A stretch of DNA of 12,392 nucleotides from an archaeon (GTDB lineage: Archaea; Iainarchaeota; Iainarchaeia; Iainarchaeales; CSSED10-239). The DNA is taken from contig JBAWVI010000022.1 of assembly GCA_037147375.1 (NCBI GenBank), positions 1-12,392 of the forward strand, given 5' to 3'. This document shows positions 1 through 12,392 of the stretch, piece by piece (position 1 is the first letter of the stretch; the number at the start of each line of letters is the position of its first letter). The notes below the pieces were generated by a model. That model had not been told where the DNA came from. It was given only the letters and a program-made list of their open reading frames with translations, and ran no database searches. The position numbers were made by a program, and so were the translations under genes.

Positions 1-1304
1 CTAATGGTGTATATAAACTTACACCAATAAATTTACCAACAGATGTAATTAAAGTGCAATATCTTCTTGATGAAACATCTGAGCTTTGTTTAAAAGATAA
101 AAATTCAACAAATTTTTCATGCGATTTTAATAGCTTTGATTTTGAAGATGGAAATCACCTAATTTCTGCACTTGCTTATGATAAGGCATTGAATGTAGGA
201 ACAAAAAAAATTTCAGTAGCTGTTGAAAATGTTAATGAGGTTATGGTAGAAAGAGAAGAATTATTAGAATCAATTGAATTTAATTTAGATTTAATTAATT
301 CAGAATTAAATATTTATGAAGCATTACTTATTACAATAAATTCAGATGTTAATATTAAATTAAACACTGTGTATGAAAAAATAACTGCAGCACAGACATT
401 AGTTGGAGTTAATGAAGTTTCAGCAAATGAATTATATAATCAAGCAAATAATATTTTAATTGAAGTGAAAGATGTGCTCCCAAAGCAATCAACAATTAAG
501 CTTAAAACTATTTCAAGTAAATATGATTCAAATTCATCAATTGATGTGACTTTATCAACTAATGATGCAAACACAATAACTAATACAACTAAGTTATATG
601 AAACAGCAGCAATAACAGTTGATCGTAATTTTTTGATTATGGATGTAAGTTCTCAAAAATATTATTCAGTTTCACTTGAATTTAAAAATTCATCCGCAAA
701 TCCAATAACAATTACATTTATTGAAGAAATTCCAAAAGAATTTGCAAGCGATATTAGAGATTTAATATTTGCAGATAAAGTTGAAGTTTTAGTGACTGAT
801 CCAGTAATTAAACACACAATTACTATACCTGCAAAGGGATCAACCATTGTAAGATATAATAAAAAAGATCCAATTACTGAATTAGATGTAATAACAAAAT
901 TCGAGTTAATTAATTTTAAATCTCCTGTAATTTTATCTGGAGAAGTTGCTTCTAATAAATTAATAATTGTTTCATCTACTATTAAACAAAAATTGTTTAC
1001 TTATATTGGTATTTTCGTAATTTCATTACTTCTTTTATTAATAATTACATGGCTTGTTGTTTCTGCAAATAAGAAAAAACCTGAACTTGGTAAACCAACT
1101 GCAAAAGATGAAATATATAATACTCTTGGAAAAGGAGATTTTGAAAAACTATCAAAGCTTAAAGATAATCCATCTACTAATAATAAGATTAATGAAGGAA
1201 TGGGTAATCCTACTGCAAGTAAAGTTGCTGTTGATGATAAATTTCAAAGTAATTATGATTTTATATTAGATGCCGTAAAACGATCAAACAGAGATAAGAA
1301 ATGA
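1..1304 (+). CDS. Cell-surface/envelope protein, C-terminal part (5' end lies outside the window): Ig-like domain remnant, long extracellular region, single C-terminal TM anchor, basic cytoplasmic tail
   Basis: The frame is open from nt 3 (NGVYKLTPINLPTDVIK...) with no stop before the track's GTG at 54, so the ORF is cut by the window edge. ISALAYDKALNVG resembles the A-x-D-x-A-G-N signature of Ig-like surface domains. The hydrophobic helix FTYIGIFVISLLLLLIITWLVVSA is followed by NKKKPELGK (positive-inside) and a tail of about 95 aa. Confidence 0.6.
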   Translation, partial: NGVYKLTPINLPTDVIKVQYLLDETSELCLKDKNSTNFSCDFNSFDFEDGNHLISALAYDKALNVGTKKISVAVENVNEVMVEREELLESIEFNLDLINSELNIYEALLITINSDVNIKLNTVYEKITAAQTLVGVNEVSANELYNQANNILIEVKDVLPKQSTIKLKTISSKYDSNSSIDVTLSTNDANTITNTTKLYETAAITVDRNFLIMDVSSQKYYSVSLEFKNSSANPITITFIEEIPKEFASDIRDLIFADKVEVLVTDPVIKHTITIPAKGSTIVRYNKKDPITELDVITKFELINFKSPVILSGEVASNKLIIVSSTIKQKLFTYIGIFVISLLLLLIITWLVVSANKKKPELGKPTAKDEIYNTLGKGDFEKLSKLKDNPSTNNKINEGMGNPTASKVAVDDKFQSNYDFILDAVKRSNRDKK

Positions 1305-2491
1305 TAGAAGGCATAGATAAAAGGATAGTAATTGCTGGTGGTGGGCCAATAGGGCTTTACACTGCATACTTAATTAAGAAGCTTAATCCAAATATACTTG
1401 TTATTGTGCTTGAAGAGCATGAAGAAGTAGGAATTCCTACTTGTTGTTCAGGACTTATTTCTTTATCTGGATTTAATAAGACTAAACTTAAAGATTATAT
1501 AAATATCAATGATTATGTTATAAATAAAGTAAGAGGTGCTGATATATTTGGACCTCATGCAGTTATTTTGAAAGTAGAATCTAGAGAGTATAAAGCAATT
1601 GTTATTGATAGAGAAAAATTTGATAAGAAAATAAGAGATCTTGCATTATCTTTAGATGTTGATATTCAATATAATCAAAAATTAATTTCTGTTGAAGAGG
1701 ATAATATTAAGGTTAAAGATTTAAAAACAGGAATGATTTCTGATTTAAGATTTGATTTTTTAGTTGGAGCTGATGGTCCAAATTCAATTGTTAGAGATAG
1801 TATATTAACTACAAAACCAGAAACTGAATTTATACACACTTATCAGGTTATGGTTGAAGGTGAATTTGGAACTGAAGGGGTTTCTGTTTATCTTGGAGAT
1901 TTTGCAAAAGGTATGTTTGGGTGGGTTATTCCTGAATCACCATATAGAGCAAAGATTGGAGTTGGAACTAGTATTGGAACTAGAAATCCAAAAGAGCAGT
2001 TTGATAAATTTTTAGAAAGAAGTAAAATTAAGTTTGATAATGTTCTTTCAACAACTTCTGGAATTATTCCTGTTTCAAAACCACTTGAAACATATGCGCG
2101 TCACAATCGTTTGATTGTTGGAGATGCTGCTTGTTTTGTTAAAGCAACAACTGGTGGAGGAATAAACTTTGGTCTTCTTTCAGCAGAGGCAGCTGCAAAA
2201 GCAGTTAATGAAAGAATAAAAGAGTTTAAGGATCTTGAAAGCAATTACAAGCATCTTCTTTCAAGATATACAAGTGAACTTAAAACACATTATAAGATTA
2301 GAAAGTATATGGATTCCAAGAATAATATTGAACTTGAGAATCTTTTAATTAAGCTAAAAAAAATTGGTATTGAGAAATTCCTTGAACAAAGAGGGGATAT
2401 GGATTTTCCAAGTTATTTTATGCCAAGATTATTAACAAACCCTGGTTTCATTACTCTTGCTCCTGAAATAATAAAGTTTCTAAGAAGTTAA
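1301..2491 (+). CDS. FAD-dependent geranylgeranyl reductase family protein (digeranylgeranylglycerophospholipid reductase-like)
   Basis: N-terminal Rossmann dinucleotide motif IVIAGGGPIGLYTAY, then VGADGPNSIVR, then VGDAACFVKATTGGGI, in the order typical of archaeal GGR flavoproteins. The ATG at 1301 overlaps the upstream TGA (ATGA). Confidence 0.85.
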   Translation: MIEGIDKRIVIAGGGPIGLYTAYLIKKLNPNILVIVLEEHEEVGIPTCCSGLISLSGFNKTKLKDYININDYVINKVRGADIFGPHAVILKVESREYKAIVIDREKFDKKIRDLALSLDVDIQYNQKLISVEEDNIKVKDLKTGMISDLRFDFLVGADGPNSIVRDSILTTKPETEFIHTYQVMVEGEFGTEGVSVYLGDFAKGMFGWVIPESPYRAKIGVGTSIGTRNPKEQFDKFLERSKIKFDNVLSTTSGIIPVSKPLETYARHNRLIVGDAACFVKATTGGGINFGLLSAEAAAKAVNERIKEFKDLESNYKHLLSRYTSELKTHYKIRKYMDSKNNIELENLLIKLKKIGIEKFLEQRGDMDFPSYFMPRLLTNPGFITLAPEIIKFLRS

Positions 2492-2558
2492 TTAATTTTA
2501 ATTTTTCATAATTAATATATTTCCTTTAAAATTAGTGTTTTTAAGCTTTTTCTATTAG

Positions 2559-2566
2559 TATATATA
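2559..2566 (+). promoter_or_regulatory. Candidate TATA box for the Alba gene
   Basis: TATATATA lies about 55 nt upstream of the ATG in a 129-bp intergenic region. It would give a leader of roughly 30 nt carrying the SD motif. AT-rich background makes this weak evidence. Confidence 0.3.
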
Positions 2567-2606
2567 CTTATTAATTATACTAGGACTAGCAACAACTAAA
2601 ACAACT

Positions 2607-2613
2607 GAGGGGG
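2607..2613 (+). promoter_or_regulatory. Shine-Dalgarno-like ribosome-binding site for Alba
   Basis: GAGGGGG sits 7 nt upstream of the ATG at 2621. The same spacing recurs at GGAGTGA 7239-7245 before the ATG at 7253 and at GGAG 7928-7931 before the ATG at 7939. Confidence 0.55.
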
Positions 2614-2620
2614 AAATAAT

Positions 2621-2899
2621 ATGGACACAATGGAAAACAATATTATTTACATAGGTAAAAAAAATACAATGTCCTATGTTTTAGCTGTTATCACACAGTT
2701 TAATCAAGGTGCAGAATCAGTTATTATCAAAGCTAGAGGAAAAACAATTTCAAAGGCTGTTGATGTTGCAGAAATAGTTAAAAATAAGTTTGTAAATACT
2801 TTGAAAATAAAAAATATAGAAATTTCAACAGAAGAAATTATTACTGAAAACAATACACCTATGAAAGTATCTGCAATAGAAATAACTTTACTTAAGTAG
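2621..2899 (+). CDS. albA: Alba (Sac10b family) DNA/RNA-binding chromatin protein
   Basis: The 92-aa product carries NIIYIGKKNTMSYVLAVITQFNQGAESVIIKARGKTISKAVDVAEIVKNKF, which follows the conserved Alba core (IGKKPVMNYVLA...ARG.AIS.AVDVAEI). A strong SD lies upstream. Confidence 0.93.
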   Translation: MDTMENNIIYIGKKNTMSYVLAVITQFNQGAESVIIKARGKTISKAVDVAEIVKNKFVNTLKIKNIEISTEEIITENNTPMKVSAIEITLLK

Positions 2900-2929
2900 T
2901 TTTTATAAAAAAAAAGGGAGTGAAAATAT

Positions 2930-3124
2930 ATAGTTAGAAATACAATTGATTGGGTTGCAATAATTCTTTTGATTATTGGTGGTCTAAATTGGGGTCTTGT
3001 TGGGATTTTTAATTTCGATTTAGTTAAATTTTTATTCTCATCAATATCAATACTTATAAATATAATTTATATTCTTGTAGGTATTGCTGCAGTATATGGA
3101 ATAATTAGAATAAAGAATATATAA
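2930..3124 (+). CDS. DUF378-family small membrane protein (not in the supplied ORF track; start codon uncertain)
   Basis: The frame is open from 2924 (after TGA 2921-2923) to TAA 3122-3124. It encodes ..VRNTIDWVAIILLIIGGLNWGLVGIFNFDLVKFLFSSISILINIIYILVGIAAVYGIIRIKNI. The IIGGLNWGLVG...FDLV...YILVG.AA.Y pattern is the DUF378 (YuzA-like) signature with two TM helices. GGGAGTGA at 2916-2923 is an SD-like motif. There is no in-frame ATG or GTG, so the best-placed candidate is ATA at 2930. Confidence 0.7.
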   Translation: MVRNTIDWVAIILLIIGGLNWGLVGIFNFDLVKFLFSSISILINIIYILVGIAAVYGIIRIKNI

Positions 3125-3134
3125 TTATATATTC

Positions 3135-3149
3135 TTTTTTTTTATTTTT
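3135..3149 (+). terminator. Oligo-T tract (T9 A T5) after the DUF378 gene, in the convergent gap
   Basis: tttttttttattttt lies directly after the stop at 3124. Archaeal RNA polymerase terminates at oligo-T runs. Confidence 0.35.
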
Positions 3150-4611
3150 AATTTACAACTAACTTAGGTATTGGAAGATTTAATTTTGTAAAGTATGTAT
3201 TTACATCTAAAACAAAGTTCTTGTTTGTTACAAGTATATTTTCTTTTTCAAGCTCTATAAATCTTGGAGAGGTACGCTCTGGTGGGCAAGATCTAATTAT
3301 CATCTCTTGTTTGATTGCTTTAATTGCATTTGCAACTTCGGGTGTGTAAAATTTAGTATTTGTGTGTGCCATAAATCTAGGTATTTCAGATAATAAATCA
3401 GAAAGAAGAGAATATTCTGTCATATACAGAGTGTATGCAAAATTATTATCAAGCTCGCTTGATACTTTATTTGAATAATTAAGATAATTACTAATTGAAA
3501 TTGATTTTTCTATGATTTTTAATCTATTAATAAGTTTTGATATTATTTCAGAGATAAATGATTCGTTCTTTAAGCAATACCAATTAAGCTTATTGTTTTC
3601 ATTAGTAATTGTTACGTCTCCAGTCTCTGATAATCTAATAGCATCAGATAAGGGAATTTGTTGTTTTTCTCCAAAAAAGAATGGACCACAAGGAAGATCT
3701 TTGATTTTATTTTCATGCATGTAAACTAATCGATTCTCCTGTCTTTCATCTTCTTTATGATATTGATATCTAAATTGTTTATTAGTTGATATAAAATAAA
3801 ATCCATTTCTTTCAAACCTTACCTCGACTAATGAGTTAGATAACGTATTTAAATCAAATATCTTGCTTGGTTTACAGCAAGAGCAATTAATTGTTTCAAA
3901 TCCAACATTATAACGCCCTTTTAAAAGAAGGTGAGGCAGTACATTTGAAAAATCAAGACAATAACTTTTTTTCAAAGATTCTTTTTTTCTAGGGATAGAT
4001 ACAATTGGTCTATTTTTCAGAACTAGTGCATTTTTATAAAAATTATTTTCAAATAAAGTATTCAATATTTGATCATTTGGAATTTCATTACTTGGGTTTA
4101 TATATAATAAGTTACTTGTAATTAGTTTTCTTGTAATAGATGTACATATTTTTGTTTTTTCTGAATCAGAAAGATTATTTGTGATCTTCTTTATCGCAAT
4201 ATGTAAATCATTTTCATCTTTTATTTTTTTAATTTTATTTTCATGGGTAATGCAAAAGGTATCATAATAACTCCAATTATTGTTTAATAGGTATTGTCTT
4301 TCAGGTTCTAAAAGAATTATATTCTTTCCTGTTGATATTGAAATAATCTTAGAACACTTTTGTAAGATATCATAATTTCTTGCATTTACTTTAATTTTAT
4401 TTAATTCAATTCCTTCTATTTTAATATCTCCTTTGAATTCAGAAAGAAGCTTTTTTCCAAGATCTTGTGGAATATCAATATAAAAATAAGGATTAAATTT
4501 TTCTTTGTATGTAAAATCAAATTTGGAAGATAAAAGATTATTTGAAAAATAGAGTACAATTCTGTTTTTTTCATTCTCATATATAGAATTTAATAAATAT
4601 AATTTTTCCAT
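3148..4611 (-). CDS. Family-B DNA-polymerase-like protein, apparently lacking the exonuclease domain and catalytically degenerate
   Basis: Collinear PolB-like blocks are present. These are an N-terminal block (YLLNSIYENEKNRIVLYF...FNPYFYIDIP), EPERQYLLNNNW, a motif-A-like block (CLDFSNVLPHLLLKGRYNVGFETINCSCC), NWYCLKNESF, and a motif-C-like block (TLYMTEYSLL in place of Y-x-DTD-S). See findings. The long uninterrupted ORF makes coding status solid; the functional call is by eye. Confidence 0.55.
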   Translation of the reverse strand: MEKLYLLNSIYENEKNRIVLYFSNNLLSSKFDFTYKEKFNPYFYIDIPQDLGKKLLSEFKGDIKIEGIELNKIKVNARNYDILQKCSKIISISTGKNIILLEPERQYLLNNNWSYYDTFCITHENKIKKIKDENDLHIAIKKITNNLSDSEKTKICTSITRKLITSNLLYINPSNEIPNDQILNTLFENNFYKNALVLKNRPIVSIPRKKESLKKSYCLDFSNVLPHLLLKGRYNVGFETINCSCCKPSKIFDLNTLSNSLVEVRFERNGFYFISTNKQFRYQYHKEDERQENRLVYMHENKIKDLPCGPFFFGEKQQIPLSDAIRLSETGDVTITNENNKLNWYCLKNESFISEIISKLINRLKIIEKSISISNYLNYSNKVSSELDNNFAYTLYMTEYSLLSDLLSEIPRFMAHTNTKFYTPEVANAIKAIKQEMIIRSCPPERTSPRFIELEKENILVTNKNFVLDVNTYFTKLNLPIPKLVVN

Positions 4612-4650
4612 AATCTATTTTCCTTATAGTTTCACAAATCCTTGATGTTT

Positions 4651-4864
4651 AGGGGAGAGAAAAAGATGATTGGTGGCAGGCCATATCATCTTAATCTTTA
4701 AAGAAAGCTTTAAATTAAAAGAGTAAAAAGAGGGAATCCCTGCCCCCTTCAAAACCCTTCCGCTTTTCCTATTTTCTATTATATATGTACTACAAGGTAG
4801 GGTATATGCTTTTGGGAGGGGGGTATCTGGCCAAGCATATTTGTTATCCAAACTATAGTTTTTT
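4651..4864 (+). ncRNA. Candidate structured RNA of unassigned class (G+C-rich island in divergent intergenic region); strand tentative
   Basis: The island contains G/C runs that are rare elsewhere in the window (GGGGAGAG, GGTGGCAGGCC, CCCTGCCCCC, GGGAGGGGGG). Perfect or near-perfect complementary segments are 4663-4673/4681-4692, 4697-4703/4708-4714, 4743-4750/4815-4822 (one G:U on + that would be A:C on -), 4754-4761/4796-4803 and 4804-4811/4833-4840. The + strand has no T run of 5 or more inside the island and ends in a palindrome plus T6. The - strand would contain two U5 tracts. Confidence 0.4.
4850..4864 (+). terminator. Palindrome AAACTATAGTTT running into T6; candidate 3' end of the + strand RNA
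   Basis: The 12-nt perfect palindrome at 4850-4861 overlaps the T run at 4859-4864. It lies immediately after the last G+C-rich helix. Confidence 0.35.
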
Positions 4865-4865
4865 A

Positions 4866-4895
4866 TATACTTTATAATATATATAATATATATCA
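4866..4895 (+). promoter_or_regulatory. TATA-rich tract, candidate promoter region for the DHH gene (and, read on the - strand at 4861-4868, a TATATAAA box pointing into the G+C-rich island)
   Basis: tatactttataatatatataatatatatc lies 37-66 nt upstream of the ATG at 4932. This is low-complexity AT sequence, so specificity is poor. Confidence 0.3.
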
Positions 4896-4931
4896 AATAA
4901 ATTTGATTAATAACAAATTAATAAGAATATT

Positions 4932-5813
4932 ATGATTTATATAACTGGCCACATATATCCTACTACTGATTTAGATAGTATTGCTTCATCAATTCTTTTA
5001 CCTAAATTTATTAAAAAGAAATATAATTTAGAATCAAAAGCAATATATCTTGGATCAAAGAATAATGATCTATCAAAACTTATAATTAGATTAGGTTTTT
5101 CTTTTCCAAAAAAGTATACTATAGATAAAACAGATTTATTTGTACTTGTGGATCATAATTTACCAACTATTTCTATACATACTAAAGGATATAAAAATAG
5201 AATATTTGGAATTGTTGATCACCATAGAGATAAACAAACAGAATATATAAAGTTCAAGATTATAAAAAAGTTAGGATCGTGTGCAACTATAATTTATAAT
5301 TTATACAAACAAAATAATATTGAAATTAATAATAAAGAAGCAAAGTTAATGTATTATGCAATAATTGTTGATACTTTAGGACTTTCTGTTGATGCAACTA
5401 GAAAACAAGATATACTAGTTATTAATGAATTAAAAGCAAAATATAAAAACCTACCATCAATAGAATTTGTATTATCAGATGTATTTAATTTTAATCTAAA
5501 TAAAAGTATTAAACAAAAATTATTAGAAGATGAAAAAATATGCACTTATAAAAAAAATAAAATAATCCTTTCAAATATTAAAACAAATGGTGAACTTATT
5601 AATTTAAAAGCCATAAAAAAATATTTGAAAAAAGGTTTTCATCTAAATGTAGTTATGATTTTAGATTTGAAAAATAAAACCACAGATATATATTATTTTG
5701 GTAAACTATCTAAATATTTCATTAATAAAAAGTATAATAAATTATTATCAAGAAAACGATATTTAGTGCCATTTATTGAGAAAAAAATAGATAAACTAGA
5801 TATTCCACAATAA
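4932..5813 (+). CDS. DHH/DHHA2-family phosphoesterase (family II inorganic pyrophosphatase / nanoRNase-like)
   Basis: The DHH motifs appear in order: GHIYPTTDLDSIAS (motif I, H..D.D..S), FVLVDHN (motif II), GIVDHHRD (motif III, DHH) and IIVDTLGL (motif IV). The C-terminal LLSRKRYLVPFI resembles the DHHA2 SRKKQ..P element. Confidence 0.75.
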   Translation: MIYITGHIYPTTDLDSIASSILLPKFIKKKYNLESKAIYLGSKNNDLSKLIIRLGFSFPKKYTIDKTDLFVLVDHNLPTISIHTKGYKNRIFGIVDHHRDKQTEYIKFKIIKKLGSCATIIYNLYKQNNIEINNKEAKLMYYAIIVDTLGLSVDATRKQDILVINELKAKYKNLPSIEFVLSDVFNFNLNKSIKQKLLEDEKICTYKKNKIILSNIKTNGELINLKAIKKYLKKGFHLNVVMILDLKNKTTDIYYFGKLSKYFINKKYNKLLSRKRYLVPFIEKKIDKLDIPQ

Positions 5814-5833
5814 TTTAAACTATTGTGTTTTTT
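5806..5833 (+). terminator. Hairpin plus T6 after the DHH gene
   Basis: CACAATA (5806-5812) and TATTGTG (5821-5827) form a 7-bp inverted repeat with an 8-nt loop. It is followed directly by TTTTTT (5828-5833). Confidence 0.45.
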
Positions 5834-5927
5834 AAAAAAATATAATTTATAATATATTTTTAAATAGTTTCAAGTATATAATATATCTAAAATATAATAT
5901 AAAATAAGGTAAAAAGATAAGAATACT

Positions 5928-7259
5928 ATGTGTTTAAAAAAAATAAGTTTATTTTTTAAGAAAAGAGCATTTTATCTATTTGTATTTATATTAATTATTT
6001 TATTTATTTTATTTGTGAGAAGTTTAAATATATATGTACTTTTAATAATATTTGGATTCTTATTTTACTTTTTAATATTATCCATAATAATTGCAAAGAA
6101 ATACCCAACAATTTCAAATTCAAAGCAATTTCCAAAGAAAGCACCAAAAGTAGCTGTAGTTACTTATGCATTTAATAATTTCCAACCAATTCTTTTAACT
6201 GTTGAAAGACTAAAACAATTAGAATATCCAATCCCATTTACTGTTTACGTTATCACGGATGGAACTTGTAAATTTCTTGATAAAGTTCCTGGTGTGAAAC
6301 AAATTATTCTTCCTAAAAAATACTTTCTTAAATCAGATATTAATCTTAAGTCGAGAATAATAAATAAGGGCTTGAAGTATATAAAAGAAGAAAATGTGTT
6401 TCAAGTAGATGGGGACACTATTCCAAATAAGGATGTTTTAATGAAACTAACAGGAACACTTAGGGATAATGTTGTTATGGCTATTGGTTCAGTTGGAGTA
6501 ACAAACACAAATAATTTTATTGAAAAAGTACAAGTTGTGGAATATAATTTTGGATTTGGATTTCCAAGAATGGTTATGACTGCAATGAATTCTTTAGATA
6601 TTGGAACTGGTGCATTATGTCTATATAAGAAAAAAATATTTGATGAAGTGGGAGGATATGATGTAAATAATATTACAGAAGATAAGGAAATTGTATATAA
6701 ATTCATTGAACATGGATATAGAGCTGAATTTGTTGTTGATGCTAAAGCAAAAACAATAGTTCCTAGTACTATAAAAGGTTTTTATATTCAAAGAGTTAGA
6801 TGGTTTAGAGGAGGATATGATGTAACCAATAAATATGCACATTTTTTGTTTAAGAAAAATCTTGGGTTCTTTTCATTCTTCTTTATATATACTACAGCAG
6901 CCATGATTTTAGGTATGTTATTTGTTTCAAAAACAATTTATGATTTCGTTAGTAATTTTATAATAAATGGATATTATTATATTTCTAATTTTATAAACTA
7001 TGGTTTTTCATTTACTGATTTATTAAATATCAAAATTTCATTTGTACCATTTATGAATTCATTATTATTATTAGCTTTAATTTCAATTACTGTTGCACTT
7101 TATTTTATTATTATTTCATTTAAATATAATGATTTTAAATTAGAAAGAAAATATATAATTCCATTATTCTATATGATTTTCGTACATGGTTTTATATTAC
7201 TTTTGATAAGTATTATTAGTATAATCTATGGTGTATTCGGAGTGAAATATAAATGGTAA
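5928..7259 (+). CDS. Membrane-embedded processive family-2 glycosyltransferase (cellulose/chitin/PNAG-synthase-like)
   Basis: N-terminal TM helices are followed by a GT-A core with VYVITDG, QVDGDT (DxD), GTGALCLYKK, ITEDKE (TED) and QRVRWFRG (Q-x-x-R-W). Several C-terminal TM helices follow. Confidence 0.85.
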   Translation: MCLKKISLFFKKRAFYLFVFILIILFILFVRSLNIYVLLIIFGFLFYFLILSIIIAKKYPTISNSKQFPKKAPKVAVVTYAFNNFQPILLTVERLKQLEYPIPFTVYVITDGTCKFLDKVPGVKQIILPKKYFLKSDINLKSRIINKGLKYIKEENVFQVDGDTIPNKDVLMKLTGTLRDNVVMAIGSVGVTNTNNFIEKVQVVEYNFGFGFPRMVMTAMNSLDIGTGALCLYKKKIFDEVGGYDVNNITEDKEIVYKFIEHGYRAEFVVDAKAKTIVPSTIKGFYIQRVRWFRGGYDVTNKYAHFLFKKNLGFFSFFFIYTTAAMILGMLFVSKTIYDFVSNFIINGYYYISNFINYGFSFTDLLNIKISFVPFMNSLLLLALISITVALYFIIISFKYNDFKLERKYIIPLFYMIFVHGFILLLISIISIIYGVFGVKYKW

Positions 7260-7921
7260 AATATATTACTGCAAATGTTTTTCTAACTGCATTTTTGATA
7301 TTATTAATTGTATTAATGATTGCATTTTTTGGAGTTATGGCTTATGATAATTATAAAAAAAGTGGTTATGAAGAAGATATAAAGTTATTAAATCAACAAA
7401 TGGTTCTTGATGATTTATTTATGGTTTATGTTGCTGATTCAAACAATACAGCGGAGAAATGTGATATTCTTGAAAAGCAATATAATGCGCAATATAATCT
7501 TAATAGACAATTATTAAGTAGACTTAGACAAATAAATGAAAATGCATTAGTTCCGACAAGCAACTATATAAAATATATGTATGTATTAACTAATGTTAAA
7601 TTATGGATGTACCATAAAAAATTAAATATTGATTGTGATAAAAATAAAACATTAATATTATATTTTTATTCTGAAACAATTAGACAAGGAAAACTAGATA
7701 GAATAAAAGATGAACAGTTAAATAATCTATTTGAAGACACATTAAATAATTTATCAGATAGATGTAATAATGTAAATGTATTTGTTTTACCTTACAATAA
7801 AGAAATAATTATTTTAAATCAAATAATTTCAGATTATAATGTAAATAATTATCCTGCAATTGTTATTGATAAAAATGTATATTATAATGTATCACCTCTA
7901 AAAGATTTTAATTGCGAGTAA
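7253..7921 (+). CDS. Hypothetical membrane-anchored extracytoplasmic protein with 4 Cys; possible thioredoxin-like fold without CxxC
   Basis: The ATG at 7253 overlaps the GT2 stop by 7 nt and is preceded by GGAGTGA at a 7-nt spacing. The N-terminal TM helix is VFLTAFLILLIVLMIAFFGVMA. The rest has no family I can name with confidence. Confidence 0.6.
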   Translation: MVKYITANVFLTAFLILLIVLMIAFFGVMAYDNYKKSGYEEDIKLLNQQMVLDDLFMVYVADSNNTAEKCDILEKQYNAQYNLNRQLLSRLRQINENALVPTSNYIKYMYVLTNVKLWMYHKKLNIDCDKNKTLILYFYSETIRQGKLDRIKDEQLNNLFEDTLNNLSDRCNNVNVFVLPYNKEIIILNQIISDYNVNNYPAIVIDKNVYYNVSPLKDFNCE

Positions 7922-7938
7922 TATAATGGAGAATAATT

Positions 7939-8709
7939 ATGGCAACACAAGCGACCCACATACACTTTGTTAAGGAAGAATACTATAAACATCCAAATCT
8001 TTTCGCGAAAGTGGATTTACCTAACGCCTATTTTGGATCTATCCTAGCTGATGTGTATTATGTTAAATTATATGGTAGAAAGAAAGCTAATTTTGGTGTT
8101 GCTCTGCATACAAAAGATTTTGGATTATATTTAGCAAAAAAATTATTTGCTGAAGCTCACAATAATAAAGAAAGATCTTTTGCAATCGGTTTTGTATCTC
8201 ATTTCATACTTGATAAATATATTCATGGTTATTTAATGGAAGTTGGTATGTTTAGTAGGGTTGAACATATGGCTATTGAGTTTTTTTTAGAAGCAGAAGT
8301 TGCTCGTGAAAGAAACAATATGAAAATAAGACGCTATCCAAAAGCTTTATTTAAAAGAACTTTAAAAAGAGATTACCCACACGTTTATAAAATATACAAA
8401 GACGAATTACATGTTTATTTTCCAAAGCTTATAATGTATAAATTTGCAAATGATGTTATATTTAGATACATGTTAACAAGTAAATATCTTCATAGTCATC
8501 CACAAAAGAATATATTCCTTGATTTATTTTTGAGGATCTGCTATTATTTACCACTAAAAGCATATGATTACAGAATAAATACATTAATTTATCCAAGTCA
8601 TCATTTAAAGGAAAAATATCTTGGGGAAATGAAAAAAAGATATCATCTTGCTCAAATTGAATTCCATGAGTTCATGAAAGATTTACCAAAATCAAATCCA
8701 ATCTTTTAG
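7939..8709 (+). CDS. Putative metal-dependent hydrolase, zinc-dependent phospholipase C-like family
   Basis: N-terminal ATHIHF, then GSILADVYY, then GFVSHFILDKYIHGY. These match the H...(P)D...H..D..H ligand pattern of the short 'zinc dependent phospholipase C family' proteins. A GGAG SD lies 7 nt upstream. Confidence 0.5.
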   Translation: MATQATHIHFVKEEYYKHPNLFAKVDLPNAYFGSILADVYYVKLYGRKKANFGVALHTKDFGLYLAKKLFAEAHNNKERSFAIGFVSHFILDKYIHGYLMEVGMFSRVEHMAIEFFLEAEVARERNNMKIRRYPKALFKRTLKRDYPHVYKIYKDELHVYFPKLIMYKFANDVIFRYMLTSKYLHSHPQKNIFLDLFLRICYYLPLKAYDYRINTLIYPSHHLKEKYLGEMKKRYHLAQIEFHEFMKDLPKSNPIF

Positions 8710-8747
8710 ATTGATACTATTTTTGTTAATTAATATAGTTTTTTAAA

Positions 8748-10040
8748 TTATATTAATTTAACTTTTGGAATAATTCCAAATGAATATAATCCATTTCCAT
8801 AAAATCTTTGCTCTTTTGAGAAATAAATGTCTTTAAATGAATTTATTAGATTACCAGTAAATCTTAAATCTGTAATTGTATCCTTGAATTCACCATTAAC
8901 TATTTCTTTTCCAGCTCCAATAACTAATGAAAAGTCTCCAGTTGTGATTTTATTTGTGTGCATTCCTAAAAGAGAATAAATTAATATTCCCTTCTTGGTT
9001 CTTGAGATAATATCTTCTATACTTTCGCTTCCAGGAAGTTGAATAAGATTTGTGTGATTACAAGAAATAGTGCTTCCTACTCTAAACCCATTTCCTGTGA
9101 TTTTTTTATTATATTTTATTGCATTGTATTGATCATAAATTGGTGTGTGAAATGTGCCAGCATCAAATATTGTTTTCTTCTCAGTTCTAAATCCTTCATC
9201 ATCAATTGAACAAGAACCCATAAAATCATCAATGTGTGGTTCTTCATTGATTGTTAGATTTTCAGAGAAAACCTTCTTTCCAACAAATGAGTGAAGATAA
9301 GATTCATTTTTTTCAATAACTTCCCCAATTGTTCCTGGTATGATTAATCCAGAAAGTATATCATTAAATACATCTGGAGTGAAAATTAAAGTATATTCTC
9401 CTTTTTCTCCAACCTTTGGATTTAATAAAATATTTGCATCATGTTTTGCTTGATTAAATGTTCTTGTAATGTCTATATCTTCTGCTTTTGTAAATATATC
9501 AGAATAAGAACCACTTGATTGTTTTTTGTCTTTTGTAACTACATTTACTCCAAGATTAATCATTGATCTCTCTTCTTCCTTTTTTGTATAAGGATTAATA
9601 TAAAACTCATAATTTTCAATTTTGTTTAATCCCCCTTCATAAGAAGAAATATATTTTTCTTTTTTAAGTTCGTTCTTAATTTTTGGAATAAAGTTTGTAA
9701 AATCAATATTTCTAATTTCTTTATCGAAATTTATGTGTGTGTTTGATTTAGCATGCCCAAAATCATTAATTTTAATATCATTCTTTAATTTTGCAATTAT
9801 TTTTGCTTTATTAATTCCTTTTCTTATATTCTTTTCATTAATTTCAGTAATTGTATAAAATCCAATTTGTACATTAACTATTACTCTAATATAAAGAACT
9901 GCACTTTCAATATTTGTTCCTTTTGTAACATCAAATTTTTCAAAAGTTATGCTTACTTTCTTTCCAGAAGAATATATAAATTCAACTTTTTCTTCCTTTG
10001 AAATTTTTTCACATAAATTATATACTTCTTCTTTATTCAT
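8748..10040 (-). CDS. pmbA: PmbA/TldE-family metallopeptidase partner subunit (no HExxxH)
   Basis: The PmbA_TldD-type C-terminal region is present (GNGFRVGS..., TTGDFSLVIGAGKEIVNGEF). The protein has no HExxxH and sits directly downstream of tldD. The track's start at 10055 is a TTG. I prefer the ATG at 10040-10038, which is preceded by GGTGGA and overlaps the tldD stop (ATGAATAA). Confidence 0.85.
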   Translation of the reverse strand: MNKEEVYNLCEKISKEEKVEFIYSSGKKVSITFEKFDVTKGTNIESAVLYIRVIVNVQIGFYTITEINEKNIRKGINKAKIIAKLKNDIKINDFGHAKSNTHINFDKEIRNIDFTNFIPKIKNELKKEKYISSYEGGLNKIENYEFYINPYTKKEEERSMINLGVNVVTKDKKQSSGSYSDIFTKAEDIDITRTFNQAKHDANILLNPKVGEKGEYTLIFTPDVFNDILSGLIIPGTIGEVIEKNESYLHSFVGKKVFSENLTINEEPHIDDFMGSCSIDDEGFRTEKKTIFDAGTFHTPIYDQYNAIKYNKKITGNGFRVGSTISCNHTNLIQLPGSESIEDIISRTKKGILIYSLLGMHTNKITTGDFSLVIGAGKEIVNGEFKDTITDLRFTGNLINSFKDIYFSKEQRFYGNGLYSFGIIPKVKLI

Positions 10041-11445
10041 GATTTGTTCCACCAACTATAACATTATCTATTTTTAAAAATGGGCCACCATCTCCAACAT
10101 ATGCGGTCTGATTTGCTTTTCCACAAAAACCAGAACCTTCTAAATGTTGTATATTTCCAATCTTTGTTATATTATTTAAGTATGTTAATATATTTCCTGA
10201 GATTGATGCTTGTTTAAATGTACCAATAATCTTTCCTTTATCATACTTTATAGCTTGCTTTATACCAAACATAAAGGTTCCAATTGATGGATCAACCATT
10301 CCTCCAGCAAATCCTTTAAGATAATATCCACTAAAATCAGTTAGCATATCTTTGTGTTTATCCTTTCCAGGTAGAAAAAAAGTATTACTCATTCTTACAA
10401 TTGGCATGCTTGAAAAACTTTCGGCTCTTGCAGAACCATTTGATTTTTCATTTTCTATTGTTGCAGTTTCAATGTTTGTCATGTAATCATTAACAACTCC
10501 ATTTTTAATTAAAGTTGTTTTATTTGCTCTTATTCCTTCATCATCATAAACCATGTGACCAAATCCATTACTTGTAGGATCATCAACAATTGTGATATCT
10601 TTATTTTTAGTTAAAATCATTCCTTTTTTCTTTAAAACAGTAGCATTTACTAATTTTGCATCAGCTTCACAAGGATGACCTATAGCTTCATGAGCAAGAA
10701 GTCCAACAACTTCTGGGTCAAGCACAATATTAGCCTTAATTGCATTACATGGTTTTGAGATTAATAATTCTCCAAGAATACTTTTATTTTCAGAAAGTAG
10801 TTCATTCTTTTTTTCAAAGGTAATAGCATCAAGTCCACCTTTTTTGCAGAATCTATTTAAATTTGTTTCAATAATTTCATTCTTTTTTCCAGTCATAAAT
10901 GAATACATCATTATGTACGGTTCATCTTGATAAATATAACTCCAAGGATTTACAAAATATTTTTCAGTATAATCTTCCTTATATCTTATTTCTGATTCAA
11001 GTAGTTTATAATCTTGATTATTCTTTGTGATTATTTCATTATTTATTTTAACTAGTTCATTTACCTTGCTTTCAAGAGAAGAATCTTCAAAACTTTTGTG
11101 CTTGTATTTAATGGTTGCTTTGTTTGCAGCAAAGTTTTGCATATCTGTTTTTTTAGTTAACTTCTCTGTTGCTCTTATGCACTCATCAATAATTAATTTG
11201 TAATTATCAAGATTAGTTGTTGAACAAAAACCAAGCTTCTTATTTTTATATATTCTAATTCCAATTCCTGTAATTTCAGTATCTCCAATTGCTCTTACCT
11301 TATTATTATCAATTACAATTCCTGTTTTCTTGCTTTTTTCAAGACGTATGTCATAATAATCTAGATCTTTTCTTTCAAGATAGTTTTTTATATTTTCAAG
11401 TATAGATTCAATTTCTGTTTTTTTAAAATTAGATTTAGCTTTCAT
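10033..11445 (-). CDS. tldD: TldD-family zinc metallopeptidase
   Basis: The catalytic motif LLAHEAIGHPCEAD (HExxxH) is present. So are the C-terminal GxC and glycine-rich blocks (GSGFCGK, GGMVDPSIGTFMFG) typical of TldD. It is paired with a PmbA-like gene. Confidence 0.9.
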   Translation of the reverse strand: MKAKSNFKKTEIESILENIKNYLERKDLDYYDIRLEKSKKTGIVIDNNKVRAIGDTEITGIGIRIYKNKKLGFCSTTNLDNYKLIIDECIRATEKLTKKTDMQNFAANKATIKYKHKSFEDSSLESKVNELVKINNEIITKNNQDYKLLESEIRYKEDYTEKYFVNPWSYIYQDEPYIMMYSFMTGKKNEIIETNLNRFCKKGGLDAITFEKKNELLSENKSILGELLISKPCNAIKANIVLDPEVVGLLAHEAIGHPCEADAKLVNATVLKKKGMILTKNKDITIVDDPTSNGFGHMVYDDEGIRANKTTLIKNGVVNDYMTNIETATIENEKSNGSARAESFSSMPIVRMSNTFFLPGKDKHKDMLTDFSGYYLKGFAGGMVDPSIGTFMFGIKQAIKYDKGKIIGTFKQASISGNILTYLNNITKIGNIQHLEGSGFCGKANQTAYVGDGGPFLKIDNVIVGGTNHE

Positions 11446-11503
11446 ACAATATATATGTTAAGAAATCTTTTTAAACTAAATATACTATATATATCTTATA
11501 TTC

Positions 11504-11511
11504 TATATAAA
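11504..11511 (+). promoter_or_regulatory. Candidate TATA box for the GtrA-family gene (divergent intergenic region 11446-11540)
   Basis: TATATAAA is centred about 33 nt upstream of the ATG at 11541, implying a very short leader. AT-rich background. Confidence 0.3.
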
Positions 11512-11540
11512 TTCTAAAATTATAACAGTAAGGCAAAAAA

Positions 11541-12062
11541 ATGACACTAAAAGAACAAGAATCTAAAAAAAATAATTATAGATTCACAAAATCATTATTA
11601 ATTAAAAAAAGAACATCTTTTTTACATAAAATTTATTATAGTTTAGTTTCAATTCCACTTATTTATAAATATAAAACTAAACTTAAATATGTGTCTTTAG
11701 GGTTTTTTGGAGAAATTGTTGATTTCTTATTATTATTTATATTAACTTCTTTCTTAAATGTTTATTACCTTTTATCAACCATAATTGCATATGTTGCTGG
11801 CATGTTTGTTAATTTTAATTTACATAAAAATTATACATTTAAATATAATACAACTAATCTATGGAAAAATCTGTTTTCATTTTTTAAATATACAATGATT
11901 TCTATAACTGGATTAGTAGTTACAGTAATTTTAATGGGTGTTTTTGTTGAATTTATTGGCATGCATTATCTTCTTGCAAAATTAGTTGCTGGTATGATTG
12001 CATTTTCTATAAACTATTATGGTCATTCATATATCCTTTCTCATCAAAGATTTTTAAATTAA
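11541..12062 (+). CDS. GtrA-family membrane protein (polysaccharide/lipid-linked sugar translocation-associated)
   Basis: Four TM helices show the GtrA pattern: LKYVSLGFFGEIVDFLLLFIL..., YVAGMFVNFNLHKNYTF, and a C-terminal KLVAGMIAFSINYYGHSY. There is an extra basic N-terminal extension of about 45 aa. Confidence 0.8.
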   Translation: MTLKEQESKKNNYRFTKSLLIKKRTSFLHKIYYSLVSIPLIYKYKTKLKYVSLGFFGEIVDFLLLFILTSFLNVYYLLSTIIAYVAGMFVNFNLHKNYTFKYNTTNLWKNLFSFFKYTMISITGLVVTVILMGVFVEFIGMHYLLAKLVAGMIAFSINYYGHSYILSHQRFLN

Positions 12063-12123
12063 GTAAATAAATAACCAAACCCAATGTTTTTAATTATTTA
12101 TATATACAATATTATTGATAATT

Positions 12124-12392
12124 ATGACTGATTTATTAAAAGAAGATATTGGATATCTAGTTTTAATCTCAAAAGAGATAAACGGAAAGAAGATTGAACA
12201 TAAAGGTTATGTTGTTGATGTGTCTAAAGATGTTATAAAACTCAAACTTTTAGATAATGGATATAATATAGATGTTTCAGTTGATGGTAATACAATAATT
12301 CAAAAGTTTCCAGAAAAAATAAACCTTGGTTCAATTCCTATTATTAAGCTTAAAGAAAATAAAGATCTTCCTTCTATTACATATATTGGAAC
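12124..12392 (+). CDS. Hypothetical protein, N-terminal part (runs off the window; not in the ORF track)
   Basis: An ATG at 12124 is followed by 89 sense codons with no stop to the window end (MTDLLKEDIGYLVLISKEINGKKIEHKGYVVDVSKDVIKLKLLDNGYNIDVSVDG...PSITYIG). The composition is similar to neighbouring genes. I do not recognise a family. Confidence 0.5.
   Translation, partial: MTDLLKEDIGYLVLISKEINGKKIEHKGYVVDVSKDVIKLKLLDNGYNIDVSVDGNTIIQKFPEKINLGSIPIIKLKENKDLPSITYIG

Follow-up and report, generated by a model that had tools for sequence, protein, structure and literature searches.

A G+C-rich island in a divergent spacer of an AT-rich archaeon: putative control region of a PolB-like gene rather than a single structured RNA

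Does a G+C-rich island in an intergenic spacer of an AT-rich archaeon mark a stand-alone RNA gene? The question is raised by a stretch of 12,392 nucleotides, called here the window, from an archaeon of the order Iainarchaeales (GenBank assembly GCA_037147375.1, contig JBAWVI010000022.1, positions 1 to 12,392). In the window a divergent spacer of 320 bp (4612-4931) separates a gene encoding a protein with the fold of family-B DNA polymerases (PolB-like) from a gene of the DHH family. Positions 4651-4864 of this spacer had been singled out, in a preliminary description made from the sequence alone, as a candidate novel structured RNA carried by the + strand. The observation holds, but was over-interpreted: the island does not amount to one novel structured RNA, and is regarded here as a composite control region. 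In the form that we favour, to which we give about an even chance of being correct, it controls the PolB-like gene from upstream, and combines a promoter/operator with a hairpin module on the minus strand. To our knowledge, very little is known about gene regulation in uncultivated DPANN archaea.

The island does not fold as a single RNA

The G+C content of the island is 37%, versus 25% for the window and 11-21% for the other five spacers found in it. The five pairs of complementary segments previously reported are all present, with the same sequences and at the same positions, as is the CTATAG tract followed by T6 (4853-4864). The + strand is devoid of runs of five or more T residues (T5+) from 4651 to 4858, and the minus strand has two of them, at 4660-4664 and 4725-4729. 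Spacers that can be aligned with that of the window were found in six genomes (L008, L009, L010, L011/L058, L012, L013), in which the PolB-like protein is 68-93% identical to that of the window. Distant loci at 26-52% protein identity were also compared; at 43-52% the spacer is not alignable.

Folded in one piece, the island does not exceed dinucleotide shuffles in stability (z -0.41 on the + strand and -0.33 on the minus strand). In the seven-genome alignment, the covariation score of the five-helix model was 0.150, versus 0.152 for shuffles, 280 out of 500 shuffles scoring at least as high. Comparison of the genomes lends no support to four of the five proposed helices, among them both long-range ones and the arm of the supposed pseudoknot. 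Changes in the long-range helices are all one-sided, from C to U, and face an invariant G-run. In the arm of the pseudoknot (4804-4811 with 4833-4840), many cells are unpaired and there are no compensatory changes; the same segments were considered as a conserved stem around the G-run and discarded, as the register is lost in L011-L013. Hairpin B is found in the closest relatives only, and is lost in L010-L013. Hairpin A is maintained in all seven genomes. What stands of the proposed structured RNA are real, conserved hairpins in the left half of the island; the single RNA of about 210 nt does not.

The preliminary description had found by eye no match to tRNA, RNase P, SRP, 5S or C/D-box signatures, and database searches agree with it. 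Rfam gave no match in the window at gathering thresholds, and with E<=10 the best matches within 4550-4950 reached 10-21 bits, versus thresholds of 45-109. No tRNA was found at the island by ARAGORN, and neither the C box RUGAUGA nor the D box CUGA of box C/D small RNAs occurs on either strand in the interval 4640-4870. Over 20 related loci Rfam detected only unrelated tRNAs located elsewhere. As a separate observation, Rfam tRNA matches about 163 nt long, not reported by ARAGORN, lie at L018 1549-1711 and L019 1418-1581 (both + strand), and presumably correspond to intron-containing tRNA genes.

Conserved hairpins in the left half

The sub-region 4651-4764 has a minimum free energy lower than that of shuffled sequences in six relatives, on both strands (z -1.9 to -4.9). 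It hosts hairpin A and a two-tier hairpin, denominated C', which had escaped the first reading. Hairpin C' is built from the two C-rich segments formerly assigned to the long-range helices, which pair locally and not with the G-run (coordinates of this and of the other elements are in Table 1). In the five close genomes, 94-100% of the cells of C' are paired, versus 53-72% with slid partners; the figure for hairpins A and C' together is 95%, with the same controls. A hairpin forms at the position of C' in all seven genomes, with differing extensions, and is made in L012 and L013 of other stem sequences. In these two genomes, the outer stem of hairpin A has undergone compensatory changes and the inner UGG/CCA has become AUUUUU/GAAAAU, while the loop keeps GGCA; such differing stems are too few for a statistical test of covariation.

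Stems around GGCA were compared with those formed after shuffling of the flanks. Equivalent stems were obtained in 2 of 500 shuffles for L011, 15 for L012, 29 for L010 and 46 for the window, and are not rare for L009 (274/500) or L013 (237/500). The idea that GGCA hairpins are a feature of all clades was abandoned, since shuffled flanks are exceeded only in the window clade and in the Forterrea clade. A covariance model of the left module retrieved only orthologous spacers, on the strand of the gene, and no other copy in 218 kb. A repeated element, or a miniature inverted-repeat transposable element, had also been considered, and was rejected as nhmmer and the covariance model found no further copy in 218-480 kb of related DNA.

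The + strand had been preferred in the preliminary description. For hairpin C' this choice is contradicted by the distribution of G.U pairs in the five close genomes: 21 cells are G.U on the minus strand, and would be A.C on the + strand, versus 2 cells of the opposite type, or about 9 versus 2 independent positions. The polarity of the U-tracts points to the minus strand as well. Here, stretches of U4-U7 follow each hairpin in six of the seven genomes; past hairpin A the tract is of U5-U7 in six, and is replaced by CUCUCU in L011. The second U5 tract (4725-4729) sits within the 3' side of hairpin C', and a scan for terminator-like sites detected two of them at C' on the minus strand, versus 0.3 expected. 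A G+C hairpin followed by a U-tract, the arrangement typical of intrinsic terminators and attenuators, is therefore present on the strand predicted to be transcribed. In the sense strands of all coding sequences of the window, T5+ runs (2.8 per kb) are threefold rarer than A5+ runs (8.1 per kb). This is consistent with oligo-T being a terminator signal in this organism, in which the U-tracts therefore probably matter. Because of the G.U bias of C', the polarity of the U-tracts, and the matches of the model to the gene strand only, the folded strand of the left half is most likely the minus strand, which is that of the PolB-like gene. We read the left part as a putative structured 5' leader, or a small RNA.

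Promoter-like boxes in the right half

No signal of structure was found in the right half (4765-4864) in any lineage, z values ranging from -1.25 to +1.33, yet this half holds the most conserved sequence of the spacer. The block CCTATTTTCTATTATATATGTAC, a predicted promoter element, is almost invariant in the seven genomes (68-100% protein identity), and about 20-26 nt separate it from the base of hairpin C'. A second TATA-like box, GTATAT, lies in invariant columns, and is separated from TGGCC by 23 nt, a distance that agrees with the TATA-motif spacing of 21 nt in deep relatives.

TGGCC belongs to a box made of a G-run and of TGGCCAAG, present once in the window. In essentially all related loci a box of the same type precedes the PolB-like gene. 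At the right end of the island, conservation of the sequence TTTATATA.TTTA extends over the clade and to L017, where the DHH gene is also the neighbour; TTTATATA is a probable promoter of the DHH gene.

Two other roles for the G-rich sequences were evaluated and set aside. By inspection, G3 tracts with suitable loops are too few in most lineages for a G-quadruplex. Mimicry of a Shine-Dalgarno (SD) or anti-SD sequence by the G-run was rejected because in most lineages no start codon is found at a suitable distance.

A motif common to PolB-like, NurA and HerA genes

PolB-like orthologues were collected from about 70 loci (26-93% identity). In relatives at 43-52% identity the same arrangement is found upstream of the gene, and divergent from it, whatever the other neighbour: close to the start codon is a (T/C)TCCACAA box, followed by a GGCA(G/A) box next to an AT-rich one, and by AGGGGGT...GGGGGGGTAG.TGTCCAGTG or a variant of it. 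At 26-32% identity, in other Iainarchaeota and in a metagenome-assembled genome (MAG) labelled as Micrarchaeota (L072, which has a TTCCAGT variant), the elements are closely and regularly spaced. The CAT of the gene is followed, after 20-24 nt, by TTTA(A/T)AAA and, about 20 nt further on, by (RRGT-N4-)TGCCGGT; in most deep loci 50-53 nt separate CAT from CCGG. The form found in the window, GGGT-ATC-TGGCCAAG, is tied to the TGCCGGT boxes by intermediates recognized by eye, such as GAGTAAATGTCCGG in L014.

Matches to the strict motif in 139 kb of deep relatives are found in the promoter layout in about 27 of 34 cases, some lying upstream of other genes, such as a HerA-like gene (L039), a gene of 356 aa (L064) and an inserted HicB-like gene (L032). 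Four loci (L036, L074, L078, L079) feature tandem copies. In further Iainarchaeota, a PolB-like homologue (hhalign probability 100%, E 2.5e-39) immediately follows HerA, within a NurA-HAD-HerA-PolB-like cluster close to Rad50; this position suggests a role of the PolB-like gene in double-strand-break repair. A weight matrix, trained on sites upstream of the PolB-like gene in other loci, was used to scan two independent loci of this kind, each 9.5 kb long. The regions upstream of PolB-like, NurA and HerA genes ranked 1, 2 and 4 in L083, and 1, 2 and 3 in L084, and all the sites have the same orientation relative to the gene. One oriented motif thus precedes linked genes in small samples of genomes, and the set looks like a small repair regulon.

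Because it is shared, in a fixed orientation, by several promoters, the box behaves as a DNA regulatory motif and not as part of a folded RNA. It is best read as an operator-type DNA element, putatively bound by a protein. Boxes upstream of NurA and HerA genes are located at about 1961 and 3952 in L083, 1803 and 3964 in L084, 1375 in L039 and 235 in L064. In L032 HerA and the PolB-like gene are separated by an inserted HicB-like gene (about 440-1040), which is accompanied by a second TATA-plus-TGCCGGT unit; the promoter was therefore duplicated at the insertion.

A proposed composite control region and its alternatives

The stretch going from hairpin A to the ATG of the PolB-like gene is the least conserved of the spacer, and the alignment of orthologous spacers reveals no conserved TATA box in it. 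The sequence TTATAG at 4624-4629, considered earlier as a weak TATA-like sequence, is present, but is not conserved in orthologous spacers. Closer to the gene are an SD-like element and the box UUGUGAAA (Table 1). The latter is found in all relatives at 45-100% identity, at a variable distance from the ATG (4-21 nt). The SD-like element before the AUG suggests that in this clade the mRNA has a leader. The view of a long leader is based on this element, on the poor conservation of the stretch and on the missing TATA box.

The following organization is proposed. The box and the TATA sequence would constitute the promoter/operator of the PolB-like gene, a deeply conserved unit, in which the box is a putative binding site for a regulator of genes for double-strand-break repair. 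The left part would be transcribed on the minus strand from the promoter in the right part, with a predicted start at about 4755-4764. The RNA would include, from the 5' end, the two-tier hairpin C', an AU-rich linker, hairpin A with its conserved CUGCC loop, and a U-tract. It may serve as a structured 5' leader to the PolB-like mRNA, in which attenuation might take place at the U-tracts, or be a separate RNA of about 100 nt ending at the U5 tract, in which case the gene would use a weak proximal promoter. In deep relatives the PolB-like gene would be leaderless, and directly adjoin the box and the TATA sequence. In relatives at 45-52% identity a short leader, hosting CUGCC and UUGUGGAA elements, may separate the promoter unit from the gene. 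In the window clade, the leader would have grown to about 150 nt, and would fold into hairpins C' and A.

Alternatives in which the spacer encodes a protein or a + strand RNA are less probable. A minus-strand reading frame of 90 aa (4624-4896) is uninterrupted in the window, but has no Pfam match, is truncated or frame-shifted in L008 and L009 and is absent in L011-L013; one-base indels are moreover scattered across the spacer alignment. The spacer is therefore non-coding, and we give virtually no chance to this frame, which the preliminary description had mentioned as a possible gene, or to any other small open reading frame (ORF). Leaderless mini-ORFs starting at NTG-CCG-GTG were also looked at by eye: a small ORF (M-P-V...) at the box was rejected, as only three codons are in common between lineages. 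The model originally put forward, one + strand non-coding RNA of about 210 nt (4651-4864) with long-range helices and possibly a pseudoknot, ending at T6 (4859-4864), fits the G+C richness of the island and the lack of earlier T5+ runs on that strand. In several genomes a + strand closing stem, GGGGAGAG/CUCUUCC, can also enclose hairpins A and C. It is nonetheless improbable, given that the island in its entirety gains nothing in stability over shuffles and that neither the long-range helices nor the pseudoknot arm have compensatory support. The C-rich arms pair locally in a conserved hairpin favouring the minus strand; no conserved promoter is found upstream of 4651, TTATAG included; an invariant TATA-like block would fall in the middle of the RNA; and the right half is unstructured in every lineage. 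A short + strand RNA of about 30-60 nt, starting at or near the G-run as the divergent partner of a bidirectional TATA promoter, would make the box the 5' end of the RNA. In deep relatives about 49-51 bp separate the box from the ATG, and a symmetric TATA sequence lies midway, as in bidirectional promoters (PMC6640164). T-runs follow the box in many loci, and a small hairpin, CCRGU-GGC-AYUGG, with G.U pairs on the + strand was noticed by eye in L016, L049 and L060. Structure and length of such an RNA are however not conserved, the distance between box and TATA differs between clades, and in many loci the transcript would be antisense to the 3' end of HerA. The box, found before several different genes and at times in tandem copies, has features typical of protein-binding DNA sites. 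This alternative is unlikely, though not to be neglected.

Other alternatives deal with DNA. The hairpins may be incidental, or act at the DNA level as palindromic protein sites or remnants of insertions, the left half encoding no functional RNA. The module is in fact confined to one clade, outside of which GGCA stems exceed chance only in the Forterrea clade; in other clades the GGCA loop box occupies, by the TATA box, a position like that of a B recognition element (BRE), and the z-scores of the window are weak. Against this, stems change while pairing is kept and the loop is conserved, which is the reverse of what is seen at dimeric protein sites, and the G.U bias is strand-specific, a bias for which duplex DNA has no reason. 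We regard a DNA-level origin of the hairpins as having a small share of the probability, comparable to that of the short + strand RNA. The spacer might also be a replication origin, with origin recognition boxes (ORBs) represented by the G-run with its TCCAGTG-like box and by an inverted GGCAG box. The former box is similar to the ORB consensus of euryarchaea, GTTCCAGTGGAAAC-AAA----GGGGG (PMC1868953), examples being TGTCCAGTGGAAGC (L020), GTTTCCGGTGCGGA (L079) and, before NurA, GCAGTGGAAAC (L081); the G-string adjoins the box, and a second, inverted GGCA box is found 60-150 bp off, across AT-rich DNA. With respect to the consensus, the G-string is however on the other side or strand, 5' of the core on the G strand. 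Spacers host only one or two full boxes, three promoters within a single gene cluster carry the motif, and no cdc6/orc1 gene was found in a contig of 32 kb. In the closed Forterrea genome, GC skew places the origin next to cdc6 (PMC5905446), and the locus is at 122-130 kb of the 840-kb record. An origin at this place is very improbable, and membership of the archaeal oriC/ORB class was rejected, since neither a same-strand G-string after a dyad core nor inverted ORBs by cdc6 are found. A bolder version of the composite control region can also be conceived. The left module would be a regulatory leader, its two units of hairpin and U-tract being attenuators controlled by a protein or a signal through recognition of CUGCC in the conserved loop, and the ORB-like box would define a DPANN regulon of NurA, HerA and PolB-like genes for double-strand-break repair, under an Orc1/Cdc6-like or another winged-helix regulator. 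In this extended form the proposal is speculative and unlikely.

Several points weigh against the composite control region itself. The left module of the window is weaker than that of any other genome of the clade (z -1.2 to -1.6). Covariation is modest in the five close genomes (0.186 versus 0.161, a level reached by 31 of 500 shuffles), and compensatory changes come mostly from the two divergent genomes, whose match to the model is marginal (17-18 bits). The correspondence between the G-run/TGGCCAAG box and the TGCCGGT box of deep relatives is drawn from graded intermediates judged by eye, and the spacing between the box and the nearest TATA sequence varies from 16 to 23 nt between clades. 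Every transcription start site is placed by means of TATA-like boxes, which are abundant in a genome with 25% G+C. The two U5 tracts of the minus strand argue against an efficient read-through into the gene.

Feature coordinates and neighbouring genes

Table 1. Elements of the spacer and flanking genes (positions in the window)
Feature	Positions	Strand	Remarks
PolB-like gene, 487 aa	3148-4611	-	spacer elements travel with the gene
SD-like AAGGA	4621-4625	-	GAGGU or AAGGU in relatives; about 10-15 nt before AUG
Conserved box UUGUGAAA (UUGUGGAA in relatives)	4630-4637	-	TTTCACAA on the + strand
U5 tract	4660-4664	-	directly 3' of hairpin A on the minus strand
Hairpin A	4663-4692	-	8 + 3 bp; loop GGCAG 4675-4679 (CUGCC on minus)
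Hairpin B	4697-4714		not a conserved element
Hairpin C', two-tier	4717-4761	-	outer 4754-4761/4717-4724; inner 4743-4750/4727-4734
Near-invariant block CCTATTTTCTATTATATATGTAC	4768-4790		palindromic TATA-like box 4776-4787
GTATAT, second TATA-like box	4802-4807		invariant columns; preceded by G-tract 1 (4796-4802)
G-run + TGGCCAAG box, GGGAGGGGGGTATCTGGCCAAG	4814-4835		local form of RRGT-N3-4-TG(N)CC(R)G
T6 overlapping TTTATATA	4859-4869	+	probable promoter of the DHH gene; DHH ATG at 4932
DHH-family gene	4932-5813	+	other flank of the spacer

The source of the window is an AT-rich DPANN archaeon. Its genes are typical of archaea, and include Alba and a geranylgeranyl-reductase-like gene; relatives carry the labels Iainarchaeum, 'ainarchaeum' or Forterrea. 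Most of the window is identical to a contig of the MAG GCA_964445425.1. The right end, from about 11,440 to 12,392, is absent from the otherwise identical MAG contig CAYUKR010000004.1 (a probe at 11,401 matches, a probe at 12,001 does not), which indicates a strain or assembly difference. An ORF of 173 aa (11541-12062) lies partly or wholly inside the missing stretch.

The 487-aa protein has no match in Pfam or NCBIfam, and a sequence search of the PDB gave nothing meaningful. Its AlphaFold (AF2) model is confident (pLDDT 84), and the top PDB matches found by Foldseek are all family-B DNA polymerases (E about 3e-7, TM score 0.44-0.50). Because these polymerases are the only PDB matches of the model, the label 'PolB-like' used since the preliminary description is acceptable. 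Proteins of the family are 480-560 aa long, feature an invariant C-x2-C..P motif and the family-B polymerase fold (TM about 0.45-0.5), and have no Pfam or NCBIfam model; besides the window gene, members are encoded at L083 5657-7291, L081 5987-7678 and L084 5843-7444. Just past the stop codon of the window gene, at about 3105-3140 on the minus strand, a perfect AT-rich palindrome, AAGAATATATAATTATATATTCTT, is followed by TTATTC, and is probably the terminator region of the gene.

Implications

If the composite control region is correct, a motif joining the promoters of NurA, HerA and diverged PolB-like genes would point to a repair regulon, and an orphan PolB-like protein would be tied to double-strand-break repair. 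The hairpins would represent a clade-specific structured leader, or a small RNA, on the gene strand. The locus would also be a worked case in which G+C enrichment in an AT-rich archaeal spacer is due to a promoter/operator and a leader, and not to a stand-alone RNA gene. No major concept is changed, and the functional steps are inferred.

Comparison with known systems

Bidirectional promoters of the type BRE-TATA-BRE have been described in Pyrococcus furiosus, where paired start sites are 49-50 bp apart; the divergent transcripts are regarded as non-functional, and the regions in which they start are not conserved (PMC6640164). The symmetric TTTA(A/T)AAA of deep relatives, often with GC on either flank and placed midway between the ATG and the box, about 50 bp apart, is similar to these promoters. 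In contrast to what is seen in Pyrococcus, the sequence on the divergent side is conserved across the phylum and common to several promoters, and in the window clade the gene has moved to about 170 bp from the box. A bidirectional TATA geometry, with start sites deduced from the sequence, is thus present in deep relatives and changed in the window clade. Archaeal ORB and mini-ORB elements (PMC1868953) similarly have a TCCAGTG-type core by a G-string, occasional tandem or inverted copies, and an association with replication and repair genes. The box differs from them in the reversed polarity of the G-string, the presence of only one or two copies, the lack of an adjacent cdc6, the location off the origin defined by skew, and the occurrence at several promoters.

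The sequence GGGGGGG-UA-GCU resembles the 5' portion of a tRNA, namely the acceptor stem followed by U8 A9 and the start of the D-arm. Unlike a tRNA, however, the region forms no cloverleaf, is negative with ARAGORN and Rfam, and is far too variable in sequence between lineages. A 5' half of a split tRNA-Trp, with an insertion in the D-loop and the anticodon loop AUCCAAA, was considered as well; it looks tidy in the window, but fails in L010, L012 and L013. As an observation apart, the 11 nt of TGGCCAAGCAT (window 4828-4838) recur without change in the D arm (loop and 3' stem) of a tRNA-Gln(CUG), at L024 6158-6168.

Terminators made of a hairpin and a U-tract, and attenuator leaders, are of bacterial type; archaea terminate at oligo-U, and a hairpin is not needed. 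Both minus-strand hairpins are like such terminators in being followed by U4-U7, and T5+ runs are avoided inside genes. Unlike terminators, they precede a gene, the spacer being divergent and having no upstream gene to terminate, and no alternative antiterminator pairing was found for the hairpins of the left half. The motif and the leader module thus appear to be undescribed, yet both belong to known kinds of element.

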